This document shows positions 2,721-64,000 of a stretch of 64,000 bases of DNA, one piece after another. The notes beneath the pieces are model-generated. The model searched no databases. It was not told the DNA's origin and saw only the letters and a list, made by a program, of their open reading frames with translations. The position numbers were made by a program, and so were the translations under genes. Position 1 is the stretch's first letter; each line of letters opens with the position of its first letter. Where the stretch lies: contig OZ360223.1 in the NCBI GenBank assembly GCA_977017645.1, positions 209,436,001-209,500,000 of the forward strand. Direction: 5' to 3'. This DNA comes from Torpedo marmorata (lineage: Eukaryota).

Positions 2721-3459
2721 AAACATGAAAATCTGTGGACACCGTGGTTGAAGTAAAAAATACAAATGCTGGAGAAACTCAGCAGGTCAAACAGTGTCTT
2801 TTATGTAGCAAAGGTAGAAATACATAACCGACGTTTCGGGCTTGAGCCCTTCATCAAAGCATGAGAAAATGCCGGCAGGTGTCCAAACAAAGGAGTGAGG
2901 GGGGAAGGGGGGGGGGTGGCAAAGGCAGGAGATGATAGGTGGAGAAAGGAGGGAGGGGACGGCAGCAAAGAGGGGGAGAAGGGATGGCTGGGTGGGTGGA
3001 GAAAAACAGGAAGGTCAGGTGAGGGGGGAGGGGAAGGAAACGACAAGCAGGTTTGGTGGAAAGCAGAAAAGTCAATGTTAATGCCATCTGGCTGGAGAGT
3101 GCCCAGACGGAAAATGTCTGGGCACTCTCCAGCCAGATGGCATTAACATTGACTTTTCTGCTTTCCACTGAACCTGCTTGTCATTCCCTTCCCCTCCCCC
3201 CTCACCTGTCCTTCCTGTTTTTTTTCCACCCACCCAGCCATCCCTCCTCCCCCTCTTTGCTGCTGTCCCCTCCCTCCTTTCTCCACCTGTCATCTCCTGC
3301 CTTTGCCACCCCCCCTTACTCTTTTGTTCGGACGCCTGCCGGCATTTTCTCATGCTTTGATGAAGGGCTCAAGCCTGAAACGTCGGTTATGTATTTCTAC
3401 CTTTGCTACATAAAATACACTGTTTGACCTGCTGAGTTTCTCCAGCATTTGTGTTTTTT
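2721..3459. mobile_element. Fold-back (inverted) Penelope-like pLTR-derived non-autonomous element
   Basis: ~355-bp inverted arms (2754-3108 and 3116-3460) around a 7-nt loop. 15-bp direct repeat accacgtataatgta at 2706-2720 and 3460-3474. Each arm carries ttgatgaagggctcaagccYgaaacgtc and the gacctgctgagtttctccagcatt end motif. Confidence 0.8.
2823..2863 (-). ncRNA. Minimal hammerhead-ribozyme-like motif (second copy on + strand at 3351-3391)
   Basis: uUGAUGA-a-GGGC-ucaa-GCCC-GAAAC-GUC: both core boxes and a perfect stem II. C3 is replaced by U, and stem I is not convincingly seen. Confidence 0.5.
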
Positions 3460-4277: not shown

Positions 4278-4535
4278 GGTGGCATGGTTAGCATAGCAGT
4301 TAGTGTAATGCTTATTACAGCGCCAGTGACTGGGGTTTGAATCCGGCGCTGTCTGTGAGGAGTTTGTACGTTCTCCCTGTGTCTGTGTGAGTTTTCTTCA
4401 AGTGCTCTGGTTTCCTTCCACATTCCAAAGACGTACAGGGTTGGTAGATTAATTGGTCACATGGGTGTATTTGGGTGGCGTGGGCTCATGGGCTGGAAGG
4501 GCCTGTTACCGTGCTGTATCTTTAAATTAAAATTA
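4278..4535 (+). mobile_element. HE1-like V-SINE
   Basis: tRNA-like head (gtttgaatcc B box), V domain ggagtttgtacgttctccc, CR1-like tail gaagggcctgttaccgtgctgtat. Confidence 0.85.
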
Positions 4536-31137: not shown

Positions 31138-31962
31138 CCGTATTTGACGGCATATAAGACCCCCCTTTTTTTCCAAAAAAAATCGCCTCAAAAACCACCT
31201 CGGGTCTTATACACGAAGGTGACATTTTGGTGCCGCCATTTTGGGCACCGAGTGGAGTCCAGGAAGCGGGCTCGCAGCTTCGCGGGCCACCTTCCCTTGG
31301 GTGGCCCGTGCTTTCCGGAGTCGCCGCCGTCGCTGCTCACTCTCTCCCTCCTCCCCGCTCACTCGCCCGCTCTCTCCCTCCCGTTCGCTCTCCCCGCCTG
31401 CCCGATCGCTCTCCCCGCCCGCTCGCTCTCCCCGCCCGCTCGCTCTCACCAACAGTGCTATGGGGGGAGCGCTGGGCCTCGATGATCAGCCTTTATTCGA
31501 TGAGCACGGACCCTCGAGCAAATTGAATGAGGCGCAGGGGCGGGTGGCAGTGAGCGAGCGGCCTGTCAAGCTCAGCTCAACAGGCTGCCCGCTCGCTCAC
31601 TGCCACCCGCCCCTCATTCAATCTGTTCGGGGGGCCGTGCGCGTCGAACAAAGGCTCAGCGTGGAGCCTGATCACCGAGGCCCAGCGCTCCCCTCAAAGC
31701 AAGCGATCAATTGTCTGCTCCCCGCGACAGTGGGCCTGGGCCCTGCCTGTTGTCCTGGCTTCTCTCCCTCCCACGCCCACAGGTCCCGGCACACCTGTCA
31801 ATCAATTAGCGTTTGGACGGTGGGGGGGAAGCAGCCTGAGCCTCGGCGTGTGGCGGGCAGGAGGACGTGTTGCTGCTGTGAAGGTAAATACACTAAAACA
31901 AATTTTTCCTGAAATCTCATGCTAAAAATTGAGGGGGGGGTTCTATATGCCGTCAAATATGG
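31138..31962. mobile_element. Non-autonomous pogo/Passer-related element, 825 bp, GC-rich
   Basis: TIRs ccgtatttgacggcatata / tatatgccgtcaaatatgg (1 mismatch). TA at 31136-31137 and 31963-31964. Internal inverted repeat ~31461-31693. Confidence 0.85.
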
Positions 31963-43562: not shown

Positions 43563-43709
43563 CAATGGTTCTCAACCTTTTCTTTCCACTCACATACCAC
43601 CTTACTAACCACACAGCACTTATGGCATAGGATGCATAGGTGCTCTGTGGTTAGTAAGGGATTACCTAAGGTGGTATTTGAGTGGGAAAAAAAGGGTTGA
43701 GAACCACTG
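43563..43709. mobile_element. hAT (Charlie-like) MITE
   Basis: TIRs caatggttctcaacc / ggttgagaaccactg; palindromic body; degenerate TSD gtctgat/gtctaaat. Confidence 0.85.
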
Positions 43710-44107: not shown

Positions 44108-45871
44108 CTAGGGTAAAAAGAGAAGAGCATTAGACCAGGTAGCTACTGAAAGAGAAATGCTGGAACAAGCAAATGGGAAGACTGGCTGGTAAGAGCAAGT
44201 GCAGGGCAATTGACAGGAAGTAAGGGACAATGAGGTTGCTGAAATGGATGAAATGATAGAAGTAAGGAAAGGATGACAAGAGAAGGAGATAGTGAGAAAG
44301 GAGTAGTGTGGAGCAGGAAAATTATATTGAGGTGGGATAGAAAATGCTATGGCAAACTTTGCATATGCAAAGATGAAAGCAAGGAAAGAGTGATAATGGA
44401 GGTAGAGAAAATGATAGAAACAAAGAGGATATATGCATCTTGCTGCAGATAAAAATAGAAAGTGCAAAGGACAGGAGATGGGGTAATGAAAAATGGTGAA
44501 GGATAAAGGGGGATAAAAGAACAGGCAAAGAGCAAGGAAAGAAGACTTCAAAATGGATAGCTGATATGAAATATGGGAACAAGAAAAAAAAAAGAAAATT
44601 AGAATGAAATAGTTCCTGTTACCAAAAACGATCTGGCTTGTAAATAATGAGAGAAAATTTTATGAGGAAGTTGAAAATTGTTGGTGGTACTTTATGAAAG
44701 ATGCTGAGAAAATCTAAAATGCTTCAATAGATTATCTCTTTATGCCGCGCACATTTCCCCTTTTTATTTCTTCCTTTCATAATCTCATTCTGCTTTTCTT
44801 TTCCTTGTCTTTTTCTCCTTCAGTATTTCCCACACGCTAATTTCCTTCCTGTTTTTAAATCCATTTCTTCTCATTCCAATATTCTTCTGCATTCTCTCTT
44901 TCCCATCTATTTCCTTATTTTGCTCCTGTACTGAGCAGTTTGAGTCAGGTGTCATTTTTTCCCCCCAGTTTTCTTTCTTTCCTGCACCCTTTGCCACTCA
45001 TTAGCCTCCTTCTGTTTGACCTTACCCCCCACCTCCACACACCTCCCTCCCGATCAGCCCCATTGCGCATGGCTTCCATTGCTTTTGAGCATTTTTCTCA
45101 CCTTCGCCTTTGCTTCTCCCCTTGTCAAATGCTCTTCGGCGGCACTCGAGGATCGTCAGACCTCTCTCTGCATCGACTCTGCAGACCGATCTCCCTCCCA
45201 ATTCGCCTCTCCCTCCTTCTCACCTCCCCTTTCCCAATCAGAAATTCAACACAGACCGTCATATATTTCTGCGAGTAGCTGCCTCTATTTAGTTCAATTA
45301 AAGATCCCGGCACTCTTTCATGGTTTCCTCAAGTACAGATTTATTTGTTTTAAAGCCTACAACATCCAGGTCAGTCGCGTACACAGGATAACGGCGCGCT
45401 GAGGGTGCACGGAGGCTCCGCACACACACCTGTGTACATTTCCTCACTCGCACACCGCGTCCACACACATACCACAGAGGTGAGCGCTGACATTAAATCC
45501 AGCCCAACTCATCAACCTCAGGCTGGATCCTACACTGACTGTTATTCGGAGGCATTGCCTTATCAATAAACCCATCCCCACCAGCTCTGAAAGGGAAGCA
45601 GTTTCTGAAAATGTTGACACCTTTTGATATAGTTACTTTCAAAATATTCAACCACACTTCCCTTGACTAGGAGGCGTGCAGTTTCTAAACAAGAGAAAAC
45701 AATCTTGCATGAAACACGCGTCTAACTCAGAAAACTCTCCCAGCTCGGAATATAAGGCAGTTTCAAAAACAACTTCCAGGAGTCCTGCCGACTTCCTGGT
45801 GGTATCAGCGTCTCGCATTGCACGGGGGACAGAGTTAGCAAGTACAATATTCTTTTTTTTTTCTTTTGCAC
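44108..45871 (-). other. PTCH2: PTCH2 intron 1 (1764 bp)
   Basis: GT..AG boundaries between the two identified exons. Confidence 0.88.
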
Positions 45872-46012
45872 CTTGGAGATCTGTTTCAATGCGAAAGCAG
45901 CGTGGCAGTAACTGGGTCTCCGCAGCAGATCCGAGCAAGCGGCCGGGCTTCGATGACTGTACCTCGGGGGCAGAGCTCCATCGATCCGGGCAAGGTTAGA
46001 AACCGAAGCCAT
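45872..46012 (-). CDS. PTCH2: Patched homolog 2, coding exon 1 (47 codons)
   Basis: ATG at 46012 gives MASVSNLARIDGALPPRYSHRSPAACSDLLRRPSYCHAAFALKQISK. SDLLRRPSYCHAAFALKQISK matches fish/amphibian Patched2 (PTCH1 has [20 protein letters not shown]). Phase-0 donor AAG|GT at 45871, the same ISK|GK junction as vertebrate Patched genes. Confidence 0.93.
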
Positions 46013-46452
46013 GTCGCTGGAAACCAGTCGCGGATCGTTTGGTTCAACAACAACAGTAATAATTCCCCAAAAGTGACCAGAAAAACAGCTGGAGAGTCTC
46101 TAGTCTCTTCCTGAGCGAAAGCCTGATATTTCCATCCCAACATTTCGCGCAGAAATCCTTGAGGATCTTGACTCTACATCCACGTGTAGTTTTCTCTCTC
46201 GCGCTCGCTCCTTTTTACTCGTCCTTCTAACATCACAATTTTTTTTTTTTTAAAACTCGTCCAGCTCAATCTTTACTTCTGTCCCCGATCTCAGACATCC
46301 AACATTTGGAGAGAAAAACCCGCCTCCAGCCCATCAAAAAGAGTTGATGGAAAGTCCTCTCGACCGGATTCCCATTGGCTAAGGAAGAAGCAAATTACTT
46401 AGCAAACATCTACTATTATTAGCTGCTAAGCAACAGCTCACCAAAGTGGACG

Positions 46453-46461
46453 GACCACCCA
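46453..46461 (+). promoter_or_regulatory. Consensus GLI-binding site in the PTCH2 promoter
   Basis: Perfect GACCACCCA ~440 bp upstream of the ATG. Patched genes are direct Hedgehog/GLI feedback targets. Confidence 0.85.
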
Positions 46462-48629
46462 GGCTGCAGAAGCATCAATGGGAGGTAGCGAGAACTCCTG
46501 CGCACAAGATCTCTGCGGATCTTTCCAAACCCTTGAATATTTTTTGTTTAAAAAAAACAAGTTTCCCAACTAATACATGAAACTGACAGCTAAATAGTTT
46601 CGTGTATAGTTTAGCTACATGTATACATAAAGTTCTTTGTCCTGGCAAATAAAGTTTGTAAATGAGTTTTTGTAACTTAAAAAAATGAAAGTAGTGGGAA
46701 CAGCAGTTCTCGCTCTCTCTCACGCGCAAGCACACACACACACAGACTCACACATAAGTCTGTGTATGTGTATTTATATTAGGTATGTATGCATGTGTGT
46801 ATAAAACGTCGTGAATTGCTGAGGTACCCGGGCCCCTTTAACCCAACAAACGCAGGGGAGGTCCCAGATGAATTCTGGAGACCGCATAAATAAACCAAGG
46901 GCAACTAGATCTGAATAAATGTTCTCCAGAAATCTGGCATTGCAAATGCTGTTCATAAAGTCAAGCGAAAATGAATGAAGAAATGTGTAGTGAAACAAGG
47001 CTGGGGAGCTGAATATTTTATAGCCTGATGATAAAGTCGAGAAAAAAAAGCAGGCAAGGCTTTGGGGTGGGGGCGATCTTGTGCATTGCAACAATGTAAC
47101 TAATACAATTAAAATATATTTAATTTCTTTTTAAGATGATGTTATAAAGTAAAAATATCAGTCCCCAATTTTATCGCTTTCCGATTATGGAAGGGGAGTT
47201 CAAATAAAAAAAAACAGCGTTAAAGTTCCCCCAAATCAGGCGTGCAAGCAGTTGGAATTTTTGACTCTGGGCTTTATAATTAGACTTACACGAGTGAGCG
47301 CTAATACAGTTTTACATAAATGTGCGCGTTGTGTTTGACTTCAGAAAATGTTGTTTTCGTTACAGCCAGCAGCTGCAGCATGTTTTTCCTTCCCTGAAGG
47401 TTGTTTACCAAGCGGCTAAAATCCTGTAGAAACCCTGACTGCCTCCTTCCACAAAAGTATGCGTATATGTTAACATTACCAGTGTCCAACATTACCTTAA
47501 AGGACACACAACATGCCACCCACCAGCACTGATAGGATTAATTATGATAATTTATTTCTTTTTCCTTTTGTCGACCTAATGAATGGTCTTCTTTAAGATT
47601 TTTAACGTCTTTTGTTTGTCTTTTAAGGATGTATTGTAGGATTGCAGATAGCAGGTGGTTATTCCAAACCCGCCTTTGTCTCCATTGGGGGCTTGACGGA
47701 GCTTCGGCCGGACGTGGCTTCACTCCCAACTTGGTTCAGCACAATCCACGGTCGTGTTGAAATGCAGCCACAGAAGCAATAGTATTGTAAAAACTCCTCT
47801 TCCACGGGTCTGTTTCACACACCCTGTTAAATTGTGTTCTCCAACCTCTATCACCATTCAGTGAAGTCTTTCGCAATGTGTAACAATCTTGTCAATATTC
47901 GTAGACATTTCACCCCGATGTTAGCAGCCTTCTTAAAAAGCGCTGCTTTAAATAGCGTATGATATTGTTGTTTGTATTATTCCAATAAAAACCGAAATAC
48001 AAGCAACCGGCCTTTTTTTTCTTATTTTTTTAACACGCTGCATTATATTAAAGAAAGCTGTAGGTAGCTGCAAGTTTAACAGAGACATATAAACTGCACG
48101 CGTTGCCCCGCTCTGAATGGTGTCCAATTAACCTTTATAATAAATGTGAGACCCGGACCGAGTTCAACCGCACAGTCGCGCGTTTGTGTGGCTGACGGGC
48201 CCCTGTATCGGCTACACTGCGCCCTCTGCGGGACGGTGGGAGAGACAAGGGACGCAGCCGATGCATGGGCCGGAGATGGTCCCGGCGGAGCGGCTGCAGC
48301 TCCAGCTCCGACTGAGGCCAATTGTGGCAGCGAGCGAGCGAGCAGATGTTACATGATAATTTGCAGACTTTAAGCTGCTCGTGGAATTCAGATTGAATTG
48401 GCGCGAAGTGATTAGAAAAGTTTTGTTTCTTGTTGGAACCACATTGGAAATCCCATTGCAAGAAGAAGGTCGAGTCTGGTGGGGAGACGCGTTAGGGGAA
48501 TTTGTTGGGGGTAAAATGGTAGGTCGGCAAAGGAGGCAAACCACAGAAGGGAGCAGGTTTATGCGTATTGTCCCGACACAGAAGTTCGGTTGGTGCATTC
48601 ATGGGAAGCTTAAACAAGTATAACAGAGA

Positions 48630-48912
48630 CATTTCGATGTCTCATCAAGAGGTTCTTGATTAGCCAGGGCATCAAAGGTTATGGGGAGAAGGCCGGGCAG
48701 TGGGGCTGACTGGGAGAATGGATCAGCTCATGAATGAATGGCGGGGCAGACTCGAATGGCTGCATAGCGTATTTCTGCTCCTATGTCAGTGGTTCTCAAC
48801 CTTTTTTTTCTACTCACATACCACCTTAAGTAATCCCTTACTAACCACAGAGCATCTATGGCGTAGGATATGAGTAGAAAAAAAAGGTTGAGAACTACTG
48901 TCCTATGTCTTT
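48630..48912 (+). mobile_element. CR1 3' end interrupted by a hAT MITE
   Basis: caaaggttatggggagaaggc...tttctgctcctatgt|MITE|tcctatgtct. Confidence 0.8.
48787..48900. mobile_element. hAT (Charlie-like) MITE with perfect 8-bp TSD
   Basis: TIRs cagtggttctcaacctttttttt / aaaaaaaaggttgagaactactg; TSD TCCTATGT at 48779-48786 and 48901-48908. Confidence 0.92.
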
Positions 48913-60180: not shown

Positions 60181-60820
60181 GTTTAGTACTTTTTTTTTAA
60201 GGAATATATGGGTCGTCACAACATCGAGGGCCGAAGGGCCTGTACTGTACTGTAGTGTTCTATGTTCTATGTTCCCTTTAAACTTTTCCCCTTTCACCCT
60301 TAACCCATGCCTGCTTGTTTTTATCTCATCTAACCTCAGTGGAAAAAAGCCCGCTTGCATTTACTCTATCTATACCCATCATAATTTTGTATACCTCTAT
60401 CAAATCTCCCATCATTTTCTTTGCTCCAGGGAATAATGTACTAACCTGTTTAGCCTGTTTAACCCTGTAACTCAGTTCTGTAATTTTCAGATAAGTCCCC
60501 CGAGCCTAAACATTCCAAATAGTGTAAATATATTTTTCTCCATCCAGCGACCCGGGTTCGAATCTGGTACTGTCTGTGACGGGTTTGTACGTTCTCCCCA
60601 TGTCCGTGTGGGTTTTCTCTGGGTGCTCAGTTTTCCTTCCACATTTCAAAGACATAAAAGGTTAGAAGGTTAATTGGTCACATGGGTATACCGTATATTT
60701 CGGCGTATAAGTCGACCCTTGAAACCCTCAAAAATGTCTCAAAAAACGGGGGTCGACTTATACGCCGGATATACTTTTGAGACCTTAAAATCAGCTCAAA
60801 ATCGAGTTCACGGCGATCCG

Positions 60821-60967
60821 GCGTATAAGTCGACCCCTGAAAACACGGTTCCGCGTATAAGTCGACCCCTGAAAACACGGTTCCGCGTATAAGTCGACCC
60901 CTGAAAACACGATTCCGCGTATAAGTCGACCCCTGAAAACACGATTCGGCGTATAAGTCGACCCCTG
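60821..60967. repeat. 32-bp tandem repeat (~4.6 copies) of the TIR core inside the transposon
   Basis: Unit gcgtataagtcgacccctgaaaacacggttcc starts at 60821, 60853, 60885, 60917 and 60949. Confidence 0.9.
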
Positions 60968-61034
60968 CAAAACCAAAAAAAAACCCGACTGCAACAAATT
61001 TTCATTGACATTTTAATTGAAAACAACAAGACAT

Positions 61035-62372
61035 TTAGAACCCTTCAAAATCACTTTCGCTATCATCGTCTGAGGCAAAGATCTCGGCAAGCACATCCGG
61101 GGTCTCACTGTTTAAACAGTCATCGTACGGGTCCCAGTCTGTATCTGATGAGGCGTCTTCAGCTTCGTCGTCAGTGTCCCACAATAAATCATCTTCCGTA
61201 CCATCAATTGCACAAGAGATACCGCACTTTTTAAACGATTTTATTATAGTCTCTACTTTCACTTTGTCCCATGCCTTGAGCACGAAGTCACACAGCACAT
61301 CAAGCGATGCAGCACGCATTGCCCCGCCTTTTGTAAATGATTTTTCTGCACTCGACATCCATGTATTCCACTCTTCACGCACGTGGTCTTTGAATGGCTT
61401 GTTCAAGCAGACATCGAGAGGTTGCAATATAGACGTCAAACCACCCGGGATAACCGCCATGTGAGTATTATGTTGTGCTAATGTACTTTTAGTCTTCTCA
61501 GTTAAGTGGCTACGAAACATATCCCAGACCAGCAAACTCCGTTCCTTGCGTAAACCGCCTGGCCGCCTGTTCCACACATTGTCTATCCATAGTTTTACAC
61601 CATTTTCATCCATCCATCCTTTTTCATGAAAATGTACAAAAATACCTGCAGGGAATTTTATTTTAGGTTTAAATTTGCGTTTGAAGATTACCATGGGTCT
61701 TAACTTTGTCCCGTCGGCCATGCACGATAACACCACGGTAAACCTGGTCCTTTCATGTCCTGTACTCCTCATTTGCACAGTTTTCACACCTTTCCATTCC
61801 ACTGTTCTATTGCCTATCATGTCAAAATTCATGGGGGTTTCGTCCATGTTTCCAATATTTGCCAATGCAAACTTGTGTTTCTTCCGGTTACGTAAAATAA
61901 ACTGGTGAAAACTTACAACTTTATGATCAAGATCTTTTGGTAGTTTCTGAGCAATTTTAGTTTTTTGTCGTAATACCAGATTTTTCCTGTTCATAAAACG
62001 GTTGCACCAGCCTACTGAAGCTTCAAAATCATTACTGAGTTCTGGGTGCGACTTTGCCCAGTTCAGTGCAAATGTCCTTATTTTATTTCGGGTGACTATG
62101 TAGCAATCTTGCCTCTGTTCACGTACCCATGCTGCTACATGATTTTCCAACTCTGGCCAACGAGTGATTCCTCTTCTCATGGAACATTGCCTTTTTGGTA
62201 TTTTTCTTAAAGTCTCTTCTTTCTTCCTCCAATCTCTTACCAACTTCTCATATATACCAAATTTTCTTGCAGCAGCACAGTTGTTGGTTTTCTTTGCCAT
62301 TTCTACTACTTTCAATTTAAAACTCGCCTCATACTTTCGTCGTTTCAATTGAGCCTTCAATGGAGCCTCCAT
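61035..62372 (-). CDS. pogo/Passer transposase, 445 aa from the first ATG (Brinker-type HTH + CENP-B HTH + DDE_1)
   Basis: KRRKYEASFKLKVV..NNCAAARKFGI..KLVRDWRK (BrkDBD-like); WPELENHVAAWV..FEASVGWCNRFMNR (CENP-B HTH); catalytic NMDETP, LVWDMFRSH, QPLDVCLNKPFK with 35 residues between D2 and D3; acidic tail; no stops; ATTAAA just downstream of the stop codon. Confidence 0.93.
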   Translation of the reverse strand: MEAPLKAQLKRRKYEASFKLKVVEMAKKTNNCAAARKFGIYEKLVRDWRKKEETLRKIPKRQCSMRRGITRWPELENHVAAWVREQRQDCYIVTRNKIRTFALNWAKSHPELSNDFEASVGWCNRFMNRKNLVLRQKTKIAQKLPKDLDHKVVSFHQFILRNRKKHKFALANIGNMDETPMNFDMIGNRTVEWKGVKTVQMRSTGHERTRFTVVLSCMADGTKLRPMVIFKRKFKPKIKFPAGIFVHFHEKGWMDENGVKLWIDNVWNRRPGGLRKERSLLVWDMFRSHLTEKTKSTLAQHNTHMAVIPGGLTSILQPLDVCLNKPFKDHVREEWNTWMSSAEKSFTKGGAMRAASLDVLCDFVLKAWDKVKVETIIKSFKKCGISCAIDGTEDDLLWDTDDEAEDASSDTDWDPYDDCLNSETPDVLAEIFASDDDSESDFEGF

Positions 62373-62394
62373 GATAACAATCACCTCCAGCCAA

Positions 62395-62501
62395 CGCCCA
62401 GCAGCTCAATGATCGCGATCGTTATGGGTCGACCTATACGCCGGTCACCGCCCAGCAGCTCAATGATCGCGATCGTTATGGGTCGACCTATACGCCGGTC
62501 A
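62395..62501. repeat. 54-bp tandem duplication upstream of the transposase ORF, each unit with a TIR-core motif
   Basis: cgcccagcagctcaatgatcgcgatcgttatgggtcgacctatacgccggtca at 62395 and 62449. Confidence 0.9.
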
Positions 62502-63628
62502 ATGCGCAACATCTCAGGCATCGAGATTTTTGGGGTCGACTTATACGCCGGATATACCATAAAACCATTAAAATGAGGCTGAAAAAGGGGGGTCGACTTA
62601 TCCGCCGGTCGACTTATACGCCGAAATATACGGTAATTGCGGGCTCGTTTACTGGTAGGACCTGTAACCACACAGTATTTCTAAATTTAAAAATTAAATA
62701 CTGTAACCATTTCCTTAATATCTTGAATAATGAGTTGTTGTCACCCAAACTCAGATCTTTACAGCATGGAATTTGTCACATCCAGTCTGGTTGAGTTGCA
62801 CGCCCTCTATCAATGCACTGATAATGTCACAATCAGCACAAGACTTTGTCTTCAATTCCACGAATAGCCATCACTCGAATTTTTTCTGCATGAAGAATAA
62901 AAGATTATCACCGAGTAATGGTTCTGCCTATGACCATCCAGACAGACAATTAAGAGAGTCCCAGGATAAAAAAGCAACACAAGAGACTGCAGGTGCTGTA
63001 ATCTGGCACAAAAATTCAATTATTCAATTTCCATTCTTCTCCCTGTTAATGTGACTTCAGACCTGTTGTCATTGATTGTTTACTAAACTACCAATAATTA
63101 CATGTGAAGAATGGACACTTGAGTAATTCTTAGTTTCAGGAAACTACCAGTTCTCATGAAGTATTACCCCAAGGGATATAGTAGGTGAGTGGTAATATCC
63201 ACAAATAATTTGATCTGACAAAAATTTTGATGAGTTTCAAAAACAACAAGTACAAATGTACATACTGGTAAATACAACACGACACTTCAAAGCATTGTAA
63301 ACTTCTGATCTTAGTTGCAATGAAAACTAATCCTGGAACACAATTTTACTCCTAGTTCTCCTAGTGCAGTTAGTACGATACAGTTTGAAGATACCATTTT
63401 GTAGATCAATAATGATGGCTTACATTAACAGAGCTAGCAGCAGTAGAAAGTCAGCAAACCAAGCAGTGGCCCATGATACCCAAGTGCTTGCCACCGGCTG
63501 ATACCAGAATACCATGATGTTAGAAAAATAAATCGTTCAGCAGGGGACACATGAAAGACTGCAGATGCTCGAATCTGTAGCTTGCTGGAGGAACTCAGCA
63601 AGTCGACCAGCATCAGTGGGAGAAAGTG

Positions 63629-63843
63629 GGCGGCACGGTTAGCGTAACAGTTAGCGCAACACTATTACAGCACCAGCAACCGGGGTTCGAATCCGGCGCT
63701 GTCTGTAAGGAGTTAGTACGTTCTCCCTGTGTCTGCGTGTGTTTCTTTCGGTGCTCTGGTTTCCTCCCACCCTCCAAAATGTACCGGGATTTTAGGTCAA
63801 TTGGGTGTAATTGGGTGGCACGGGCTCTTGGGCTGAAAGGCCA
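63629..63843 (+). mobile_element. HE1-like V-SINE (3'-truncated)
   Basis: Full head and V domain; stops at gaaaggcc. Confidence 0.9.
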
Positions 63844-63844
63844 G

Positions 63845-64000
63845 CACCTCAACGAGTTCCGCGCACGCCGCGATGCCGAACTCTTCTTCCGTCGCCTCTG
63901 CCTCCGTGCTCACTTCCATGACCGTGACTCTCCACCCCACATCCAAGACCCTTTCTCCCGCTTCAAGCCTTCTTCCCCTTCCTGGACACATCGTCCTGGC
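63845..64000 (+). mobile_element. Penelope-like element ORF, N-terminal region (runs off the window)
   Basis: Open frame HLNEFRARRDAELFFRRLCLRAHFHDRDSPPHIQDPFSRFKPSSPSWTHRPG (FxRRLxLRxxF...SxWxP-like PLE motif); inverted pLTR-like end at ~63555-63625. Confidence 0.6.

Follow-up and report, generated by a model that had tools for sequence, protein, structure and literature searches.

A structurally intact Passer-type transposon inserted in an older SINE of the ray Torpedo marmorata

Passer is one of the families of pogo transposons, and the survey devoted to it (PMC9976928) describes its intact members as 1.6-4.0 kb long, with a single open reading frame (ORF) of 400-500 amino acids, terminal inverted repeats (TIRs) of less than 30 bp that usually start with CCGTA, a TA target-site duplication (TSD), and a transposase combining two DNA-binding motifs with a DD35D catalytic triad. 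The survey counts 404 elements in 391 species, more than 200 of which have intact elements. Among pogo families, the pairing of the BrkDBD and HTH_Tnp_Tc5 motifs is given for Passer only in the relevant passages of PMC7386202. The elements of the stickleback Gasterosteus aculeatus and of Danio rerio, which belong to the PS/JL gene-transfer system (PMC9976928, PMC11840574), have proven activity and are represented by 16 and 7 intact copies at more than 97% identity. Here we describe a single element of this kind in 64,000 nucleotides of Torpedo marmorata DNA (assembly GCA_977017645.1, contig OZ360223.1, 209,436,001-209,500,000, forward strand), called the window below and providing all coordinates. 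We consider it probable that this is a selfish, autonomous-type element resembling the PasserC group, which entered a TA within an old short interspersed element (SINE) by cut-and-paste transposition and has decayed little since.

The transposon occupies 60691-62633 (1943 bp) and is bounded at both ends by a TIR and a TA. The TIR at the 3' end of its gene (60691-60717, plus strand) and that at the 5' end (62607-62633, minus strand) start with CCGTA and are complementary at 27 of 27 bases, a match that spans 29 bases when the adjacent TA is counted. The duplicated TA lies at 60689-60690 and 62634-62635, corresponding to a single TA in the empty site. Between the TIRs a single-exon ORF on the minus strand (61035-62372) encodes 445 amino acids without an internal stop, ending in an acidic, disordered C-terminal tail; ATTAAA at 61012-61017 on the same strand, 18 nt past the stop codon, may serve as its poly(A) signal. 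The protein has three Pfam matches, all exceeding the curated cut-offs: a Brinker-type DNA-binding motif, BrkDBD (residues 11-56, 62205-62342, E 1e-15), a CENP-B-type helix-turn-helix (HTH) motif, HTH_Tnp_Tc5 (residues 72-135, 61968-62159, E 6e-12), and the catalytic domain DDE_1 (residues 209-380, 61233-61748, E 7e-30). The triad consists of D177 (61842-61844), which lies upstream of the DDE_1 match itself, D284 (61521-61523) and D320 (61413-61415); when the protein is aligned with 36 relatives, the last two are seen to be separated by 35 residues. The original prediction had given these boundaries, the perfect TIRs, the TA duplication, the ORF and the D-D35-D triad exactly, and the autonomous structure it proposed is supported.

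Structural comparison agrees with a transposase of this class. An AlphaFold model (mean predicted local distance difference test, pLDDT, 77; predicted template modelling score, pTM, 0.55) finds the Mos1 transpososomes as its best fold matches (E 1e-8), followed by the catalytic domains of SETMAR and Sleeping Beauty, while its HTH part matches CENP-B. These relatives appear only through the fold search, as a sequence search of the PDB gives no match at E 0.01. The exact 445-residue protein is absent from the protein collection in which it was looked up.

Every sequence-level character of Passer that we examined is present, which supports the assignment to pogo DD35D elements of the Passer type: the DD35D triad of a DDE_1 domain, the short TIR with its CCGTA start, the TA duplication, the element and ORF lengths, and BrkDBD with HTH_Tnp_Tc5 in place of CENP-B_N, HTH_psq or HTH_ABP1_N. 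This pair of motifs sets the element apart from the Fot group, which also has DD35D. The best of 1284 protein matches is an unnamed sequence at 75% identity, and the nearest named proteins among the matches listed come from Latimeria (67%), Pleurodeles (65%) and Pelodiscus (64%). An alignment and tree were built from 36 of 120 listed matches (13 named, and 23 unnamed at no less than 55% identity), so that the tree holds close matches only, with no other pogo family or family references. In it the transposase groups with two unnamed sequences (100/99), beside a group from newt, turtle and snake (90/96), and falls with proteins from genera that have PasserC entries in the survey.

The PasserC elements of Latimeria chalumnae, Pelodiscus sinensis and Crotalus horridus, as entered in Table S1 of PMC9976928, are indeed very similar in design: about 2 kb long, with a TA duplication, an ORF of 425-450 residues, TIRs of 27-28 bp starting with CCGTA, and an inverted copy of the motif some 30 bp inward from the TIR. 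By eye, the ray TIR shares 25 of 27 bases with that of Latimeria and 23 of 27 with that of Pelodiscus. The corresponding database proteins, matched by genus and not by element, are 64-67% identical for Latimeria and Pelodiscus and 59-62% for fragments from Crotalus adamanteus. The TIRs of the ray element are identical to each other, compared with 96% in the three table entries, and it carries arrays of five 32-bp and three 54-bp motif repeats, the table entries having been compared over their first bases. With no relative above 75%, it forms a lineage separate from these three. The stickleback and zebrafish elements share the single ORF, the Brk, HTH and DD35D arrangement, the short CCGTA TIR and the TA target; they differ in TIR core and protein, which place the ray element in another sub-lineage, and in their multiple copies and demonstrated activity, where the ray element is one copy.

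Table S1 also includes Passer entries from six chondrichthyans (Leucoraja, two Chiloscyllium, Hydrolagus, Amblyraja and Pristis), which share the family and the host class. None of the six, as tabulated, combines two TIRs, TA on both sides and an ORF of 400-500 residues, whereas the ray element does, and relative to that table it would be the first complete Passer from cartilaginous fishes; it may already be catalogued in repeat databases. In literature from 2023 onwards, with few subscription journals covered, we found nothing that joins a Passer transposase with sharks and rays, and titles and abstract openings contain no report of an active elasmobranch pogo element. The element adds one member to a family that is already known and well sampled; it is not a new kind of system.

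A more distant set of relatives comes from a collection of bacterial and archaeal genomes, where 79 candidate stretches yield four loci at 32-51% identity, with ends too distant to compare; one of them, L001, has a CCGTA-type end. Two others (L003, 2501-3784; L004, 2501-3731) encode full-length pogo-like transposases, 32-34% identical, within megabase contigs labelled as bacterial metagenome-assembled genomes. These loci are probably misbinned eukaryotic DNA.

The ends of the element are organised around a 17-bp motif, of which there are 12 copies in the element and none elsewhere in the window when up to three mismatches are allowed. Each TIR contains one copy; one inverted copy lies about 33 bp inside the left TIR (60751-60767, minus strand); five fall one to a unit in tandem 32-bp repeats (60814-60973, plus strand, 95% matches); three occur likewise in 54-bp repeats of the 5' region (62392-62551, minus strand, 85% matches); and the last abuts the right TIR with a 16-bp period (62591-62607, minus strand). 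The combination of a TIR with an inner inverted copy about 30 bp inside the end can be made out by eye in many PasserC entries of Table S1 in PMC9976928, among them Latimeria, Pelodiscus, Crotalus, Anemonia, Gadus, Blattella and Bemisia, over the first bases of each, and is therefore a family trait. This inner copy of the TIR core, which extends through PasserC from cnidarians to turtles, is left undescribed in the available text of that paper, where the word "subterminal" appears only within the title of a reference.

A repeated TIR motif of this sort has a described counterpart in Lemi1/Emigrant, a pogo-like system of Arabidopsis, where the TIR motif is likewise repeated subterminally and, according to PMC1636448, the transposase binds cooperatively to the TIRs and the subterminal repeats. 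Lemi1 belongs to a different pogo family and a plant host. The 12 copies in the ray are putative transposase-binding sites, the inner inverted copy being a candidate second site. Donor vectors for stickleback Passer are described in PMC9976928 as annealed TIR oligonucleotides that lack an inner motif, indicating that the TIRs alone are enough for that element. By analogy with the Gasterosteus Passer and Mos1, the Brinker and CENP-B-type HTH motifs of the ray transposase would bind the 17-bp motif in both TIRs and in the 10 further subterminal copies. The ends would then be paired, and an RNase H-like core built on D177, D284 and D320 could excise the element. Joining of the ends to a new TA, followed by repair, would duplicate the TA; the duplication is observed, and the chemistry is suggested by knowledge of the family and by the fold match.

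The sequence that received the insertion is a SINE lacking its head, whose left part (60544-60690, plus strand) recurs in the window as seven further partial copies, 72-82% identical, and whose right part (62634-62700, plus strand) continues in register with the left part according to those copies. Once the element and one TA are taken out, the flanks can be aligned across the junction with three further copies of the SINE, at 4323, 32970 and 9756. The TA is therefore a true target duplication, and the insertion lies within the SINE as had been claimed. Immediately to the right of the TSD (62636-62640) the host SINE is about 7 bp shorter than the other copies. The label V-SINE is provisional, in keeping with the V domain only, and an Rfam scan of the window gave no match. 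The V-SINE passages of PMC5499810 and PMC6887750 give no consensus. The neighbouring retroelement was correctly described as broken, since an upstream long interspersed element (LINE)-like sequence with an endonuclease domain is spread over three frames, its longest piece not exceeding 229 residues.

The element is much younger than the SINE that contains it. All 24 motif CpGs of the element are intact, compared with 4 of 9 in the host SINE (Fisher p 0.0005, the tandem copies not being independent). Set against the majority sequence of four further copies, the host SINE carries differences at 35 of 181 sites. The ends had been called CpG-rich and undecayed. The second half of this description holds, as no end-motif CpG has decayed, while the richness itself (observed/expected 1.86 and 1.50 in the ends, 0.80 in the ORF, 1.14 in the element and 0.36 in the window) reflects the repetition of the motif, so that the sign of youth is the absence of CpG decay. 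A neutral-decay simulation under our own assumptions (CpG factor 1, 5 or 10; indels 0 or 0.08 per substitution) puts the joint chance of an open ORF, an intact triad and identical TIRs at 0.54-0.81 for 0.2% divergence, 0.045-0.32 for 1%, 0.003-0.082 for 2% and at most 0.003 for 5%, which implies that divergence since insertion is probably below about 2% per site.

The mutation rate of the epaulette shark is given in PMC10587355 as 7e-10 per base per generation, at which 0.2% divergence corresponds to about 3 million generations; sharks mutate slowly, and little decay may still mean millions of generations. Absolute dating with this pedigree rate was dropped as a quantitative argument, as it would make the host SINE implausibly old, and the rate is kept as a qualitative caveat only. 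The description of the insertion as "very recent" is thus appropriate in substitutions, and not necessarily in years.

In favour of activity, the transposase matches 149 of 157 highly conserved columns, and its eight departures are below the median of 10.5 (range 0-28) for the 36 other sequences. We give a little better than an even chance that this protein, or a consensus of its family, is still able to transpose when assayed in cells, and regard current movement in the fish as unlikely. Several points weigh against reading the element as a little-decayed autonomous copy. The two nearest relatives depart at only three and four of the conserved columns, against eight here, and none of the 36 relatives in the alignment shares Q62, F234, A342 or C387. 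The 64-kb window holds only one copy, no second being found by BLASTN, TBLASTN or a motif scan; activity of the G. aculeatus and D. rerio elements was argued from more than five intact copies, transposase identity above 96% and Kimura divergence below 2%. The decay simulation depends on rates that we assumed, and the copy was picked for its intactness, which biases it towards looking young. Finally, three of five cloned intact Passer ORFs, all three from Maylandia zebra, were inactive in cells according to PMC9976928, the G. aculeatus and D. rerio clones being active in the same assay.

The alternative that survives best, to which we attach a smaller but appreciable probability, is that the copy is intact in appearance only: its ORF would be open yet carry disabling missense changes, the family would have stopped moving long ago, and slow elasmobranch mutation would have preserved its pristine look. 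The four residues private among the 37 aligned sequences fit this explanation, as do the inactive M. zebra clones and the millions of generations that the epaulette shark rate allows, and the threonine replaced by F234 is present in 33 of the 36 relatives and also, as read by eye, in the two fish transposases with proven activity (KRKT). Against it, position 234 is leucine in two relatives, and the active GaacPS, by eye, also lacks asparagine at the position of C387. Both T-to-F and N-to-C require two base changes (codons TTT and TGT), which is improbable within less than 2% of post-insertion decay, so these residues are more likely to date from a time when selection still acted on the lineage; the shark rate, for its part, counts only qualitatively. 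We keep to a selfish autonomous-type element, and the proposal that it is a candidate transposase tool is reasonable, if ordinary, given how many species have intact Passer elements and how often cloned intact ORFs were inactive.

That the element is a recent horizontal invader from another animal lineage, as the original prediction suggested, is compatible with the reading we prefer but appears rather doubtful. The insertion is young; in the neighbouring clade, proteins from newt, turtle and rattlesnake share 82-88% identity with one another, which would suggest a transfer-prone family; and CpG observed/expected in the ORF (0.80) exceeds that of three host LINE fragments (0.18-0.28). CpG richness was considered as a marker of foreign origin and found weak, because SINE copies in the window also reach 0.55-0.92 and because recognition of stickleback Passer appears to depend critically on a CpG in its TIR. 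Opposed to a transfer is the want of a donor, the best of the 1284 matches being the unnamed 75% relative, and identity to the coelacanth is 67% for the transposase against 86% for exon 2 of the host's patched gene. At codon junctions the ORF has 17 CpG where 2000 synonymous shuffles give 25.1 +/- 3.4, and 51 TpG where 38.5 +/- 3.7 are expected, a loss and an excess indicating that it has spent some time in a methylating genome. A second, older Passer-type element in the window and the six chondrichthyans with Passer entries indicate that the family has long been resident.

This second element, at 31138-31962, is an 825-bp non-autonomous sequence flanked by TA on both sides, with ends that begin CCGTA and CCATA and match at 24 of 27 bases. 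Like the main element it has the inner inverted motif; its interior is GC-rich, contains an inverted repeat and shows no coding similarity. Its TIR core differs from that of the main element and the interiors share no similarity, so it testifies to another Passer family in the host, earlier or parallel.

Domestication is a far less probable explanation. Under it the ORF would be a host gene like POGK or POGZ, or the insertion would have been selected for a regulatory effect on the patched gene, and the open ORF with its POGK-like domain pair, together with a position on the strand of the patched gene 14.7 kb upstream of its start codon, can be cited in its favour. POGK and POGZ, domesticated genes derived from Passer, neither of which transposes, have KRAB or zinc-finger fusions, and POGK has DN35D (PMC7386202). 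The ray protein has no such fusion by Pfam and retains DD35D, the perfect TIRs, TSD and subterminal arrays are all kept, the element sits inside a lineage-level SINE, and no near-identical protein from an annotated shark or ray was found among the matches. An assembly artefact or contaminant DNA, suggested only by a composition unlike the host background, is scarcely credible when both junctions lie in register in one host SINE with a TA duplication and the window has no N.

The meaning of a complete ray Passer is modest, in that it fills a small gap in a survey whose table has six cartilaginous fishes and no complete element among them, and our understanding of how pogo elements work is unchanged by it. 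Should the family prove polymorphic or active, a slowly evolving vertebrate lineage would be shown to contain a live DNA transposon, which could also supply population markers, and an active transposase would be one more to screen, with ends unlike those of the stickleback tool. The fullest version of the case, in which this is a currently mobile autonomous element, the first complete Passer of a cartilaginous fish, from a sub-lineage whose named relatives reach no more than 67%, possibly acquired by recent horizontal transfer, and with its 12 motifs serving as cooperative binding sites, is improbable when taken as a whole. If it were true, mobility and cooperative motifs would make for an orthogonal Passer tool, and native subterminal sites, absent from the TIR-only PS vectors, could raise the activity of Passer vectors.

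The host's patched (ptch2-like) gene lies on the minus strand with exon 1 at 46012-45872 and exon 2 at 44107-43916, both assigned to a CpG-rich region at about 45000-48500. Exon 2 matches a Stegostoma protein at 100% identity, Callorhinchus at 95%, Hemitrygon at 94% and the bony vertebrates among the matches listed at no more than 88%, and exon 1 shares 44 of 47 residues with Hemitrygon, which is nearer than Stegostoma; the two exons indicate a cartilaginous fish, as had been proposed, and probably a batoid. As the window shows no further patched exon, intron 2 would be longer than 43 kb. The transposon shares the strand of this gene and lies 14,679 bp upstream of its start codon. In human cells stickleback Passer prefers the 5' regions of genes, as reported in PMC9976928, and one site at this distance says little about such a preference.

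Several smaller features complete the window. A GC-rich open-frame sequence without a Pfam match (63823-64000) runs off its end and interrupts a SINE copy that begins at about 63630. Two short related elements with inverted ends occur at about 43563-43709 and at 48787-48901, the latter with an 8-bp direct repeat on both sides, by eye, which is presumably the kind seen in hAT-type miniature inverted-repeat transposable elements. At the other end of the window, 2762-3452 is a near-perfect palindromic element of about 690 bp, whose inverted arms have stretches of 53, 41, 39 and 36 identical bases.

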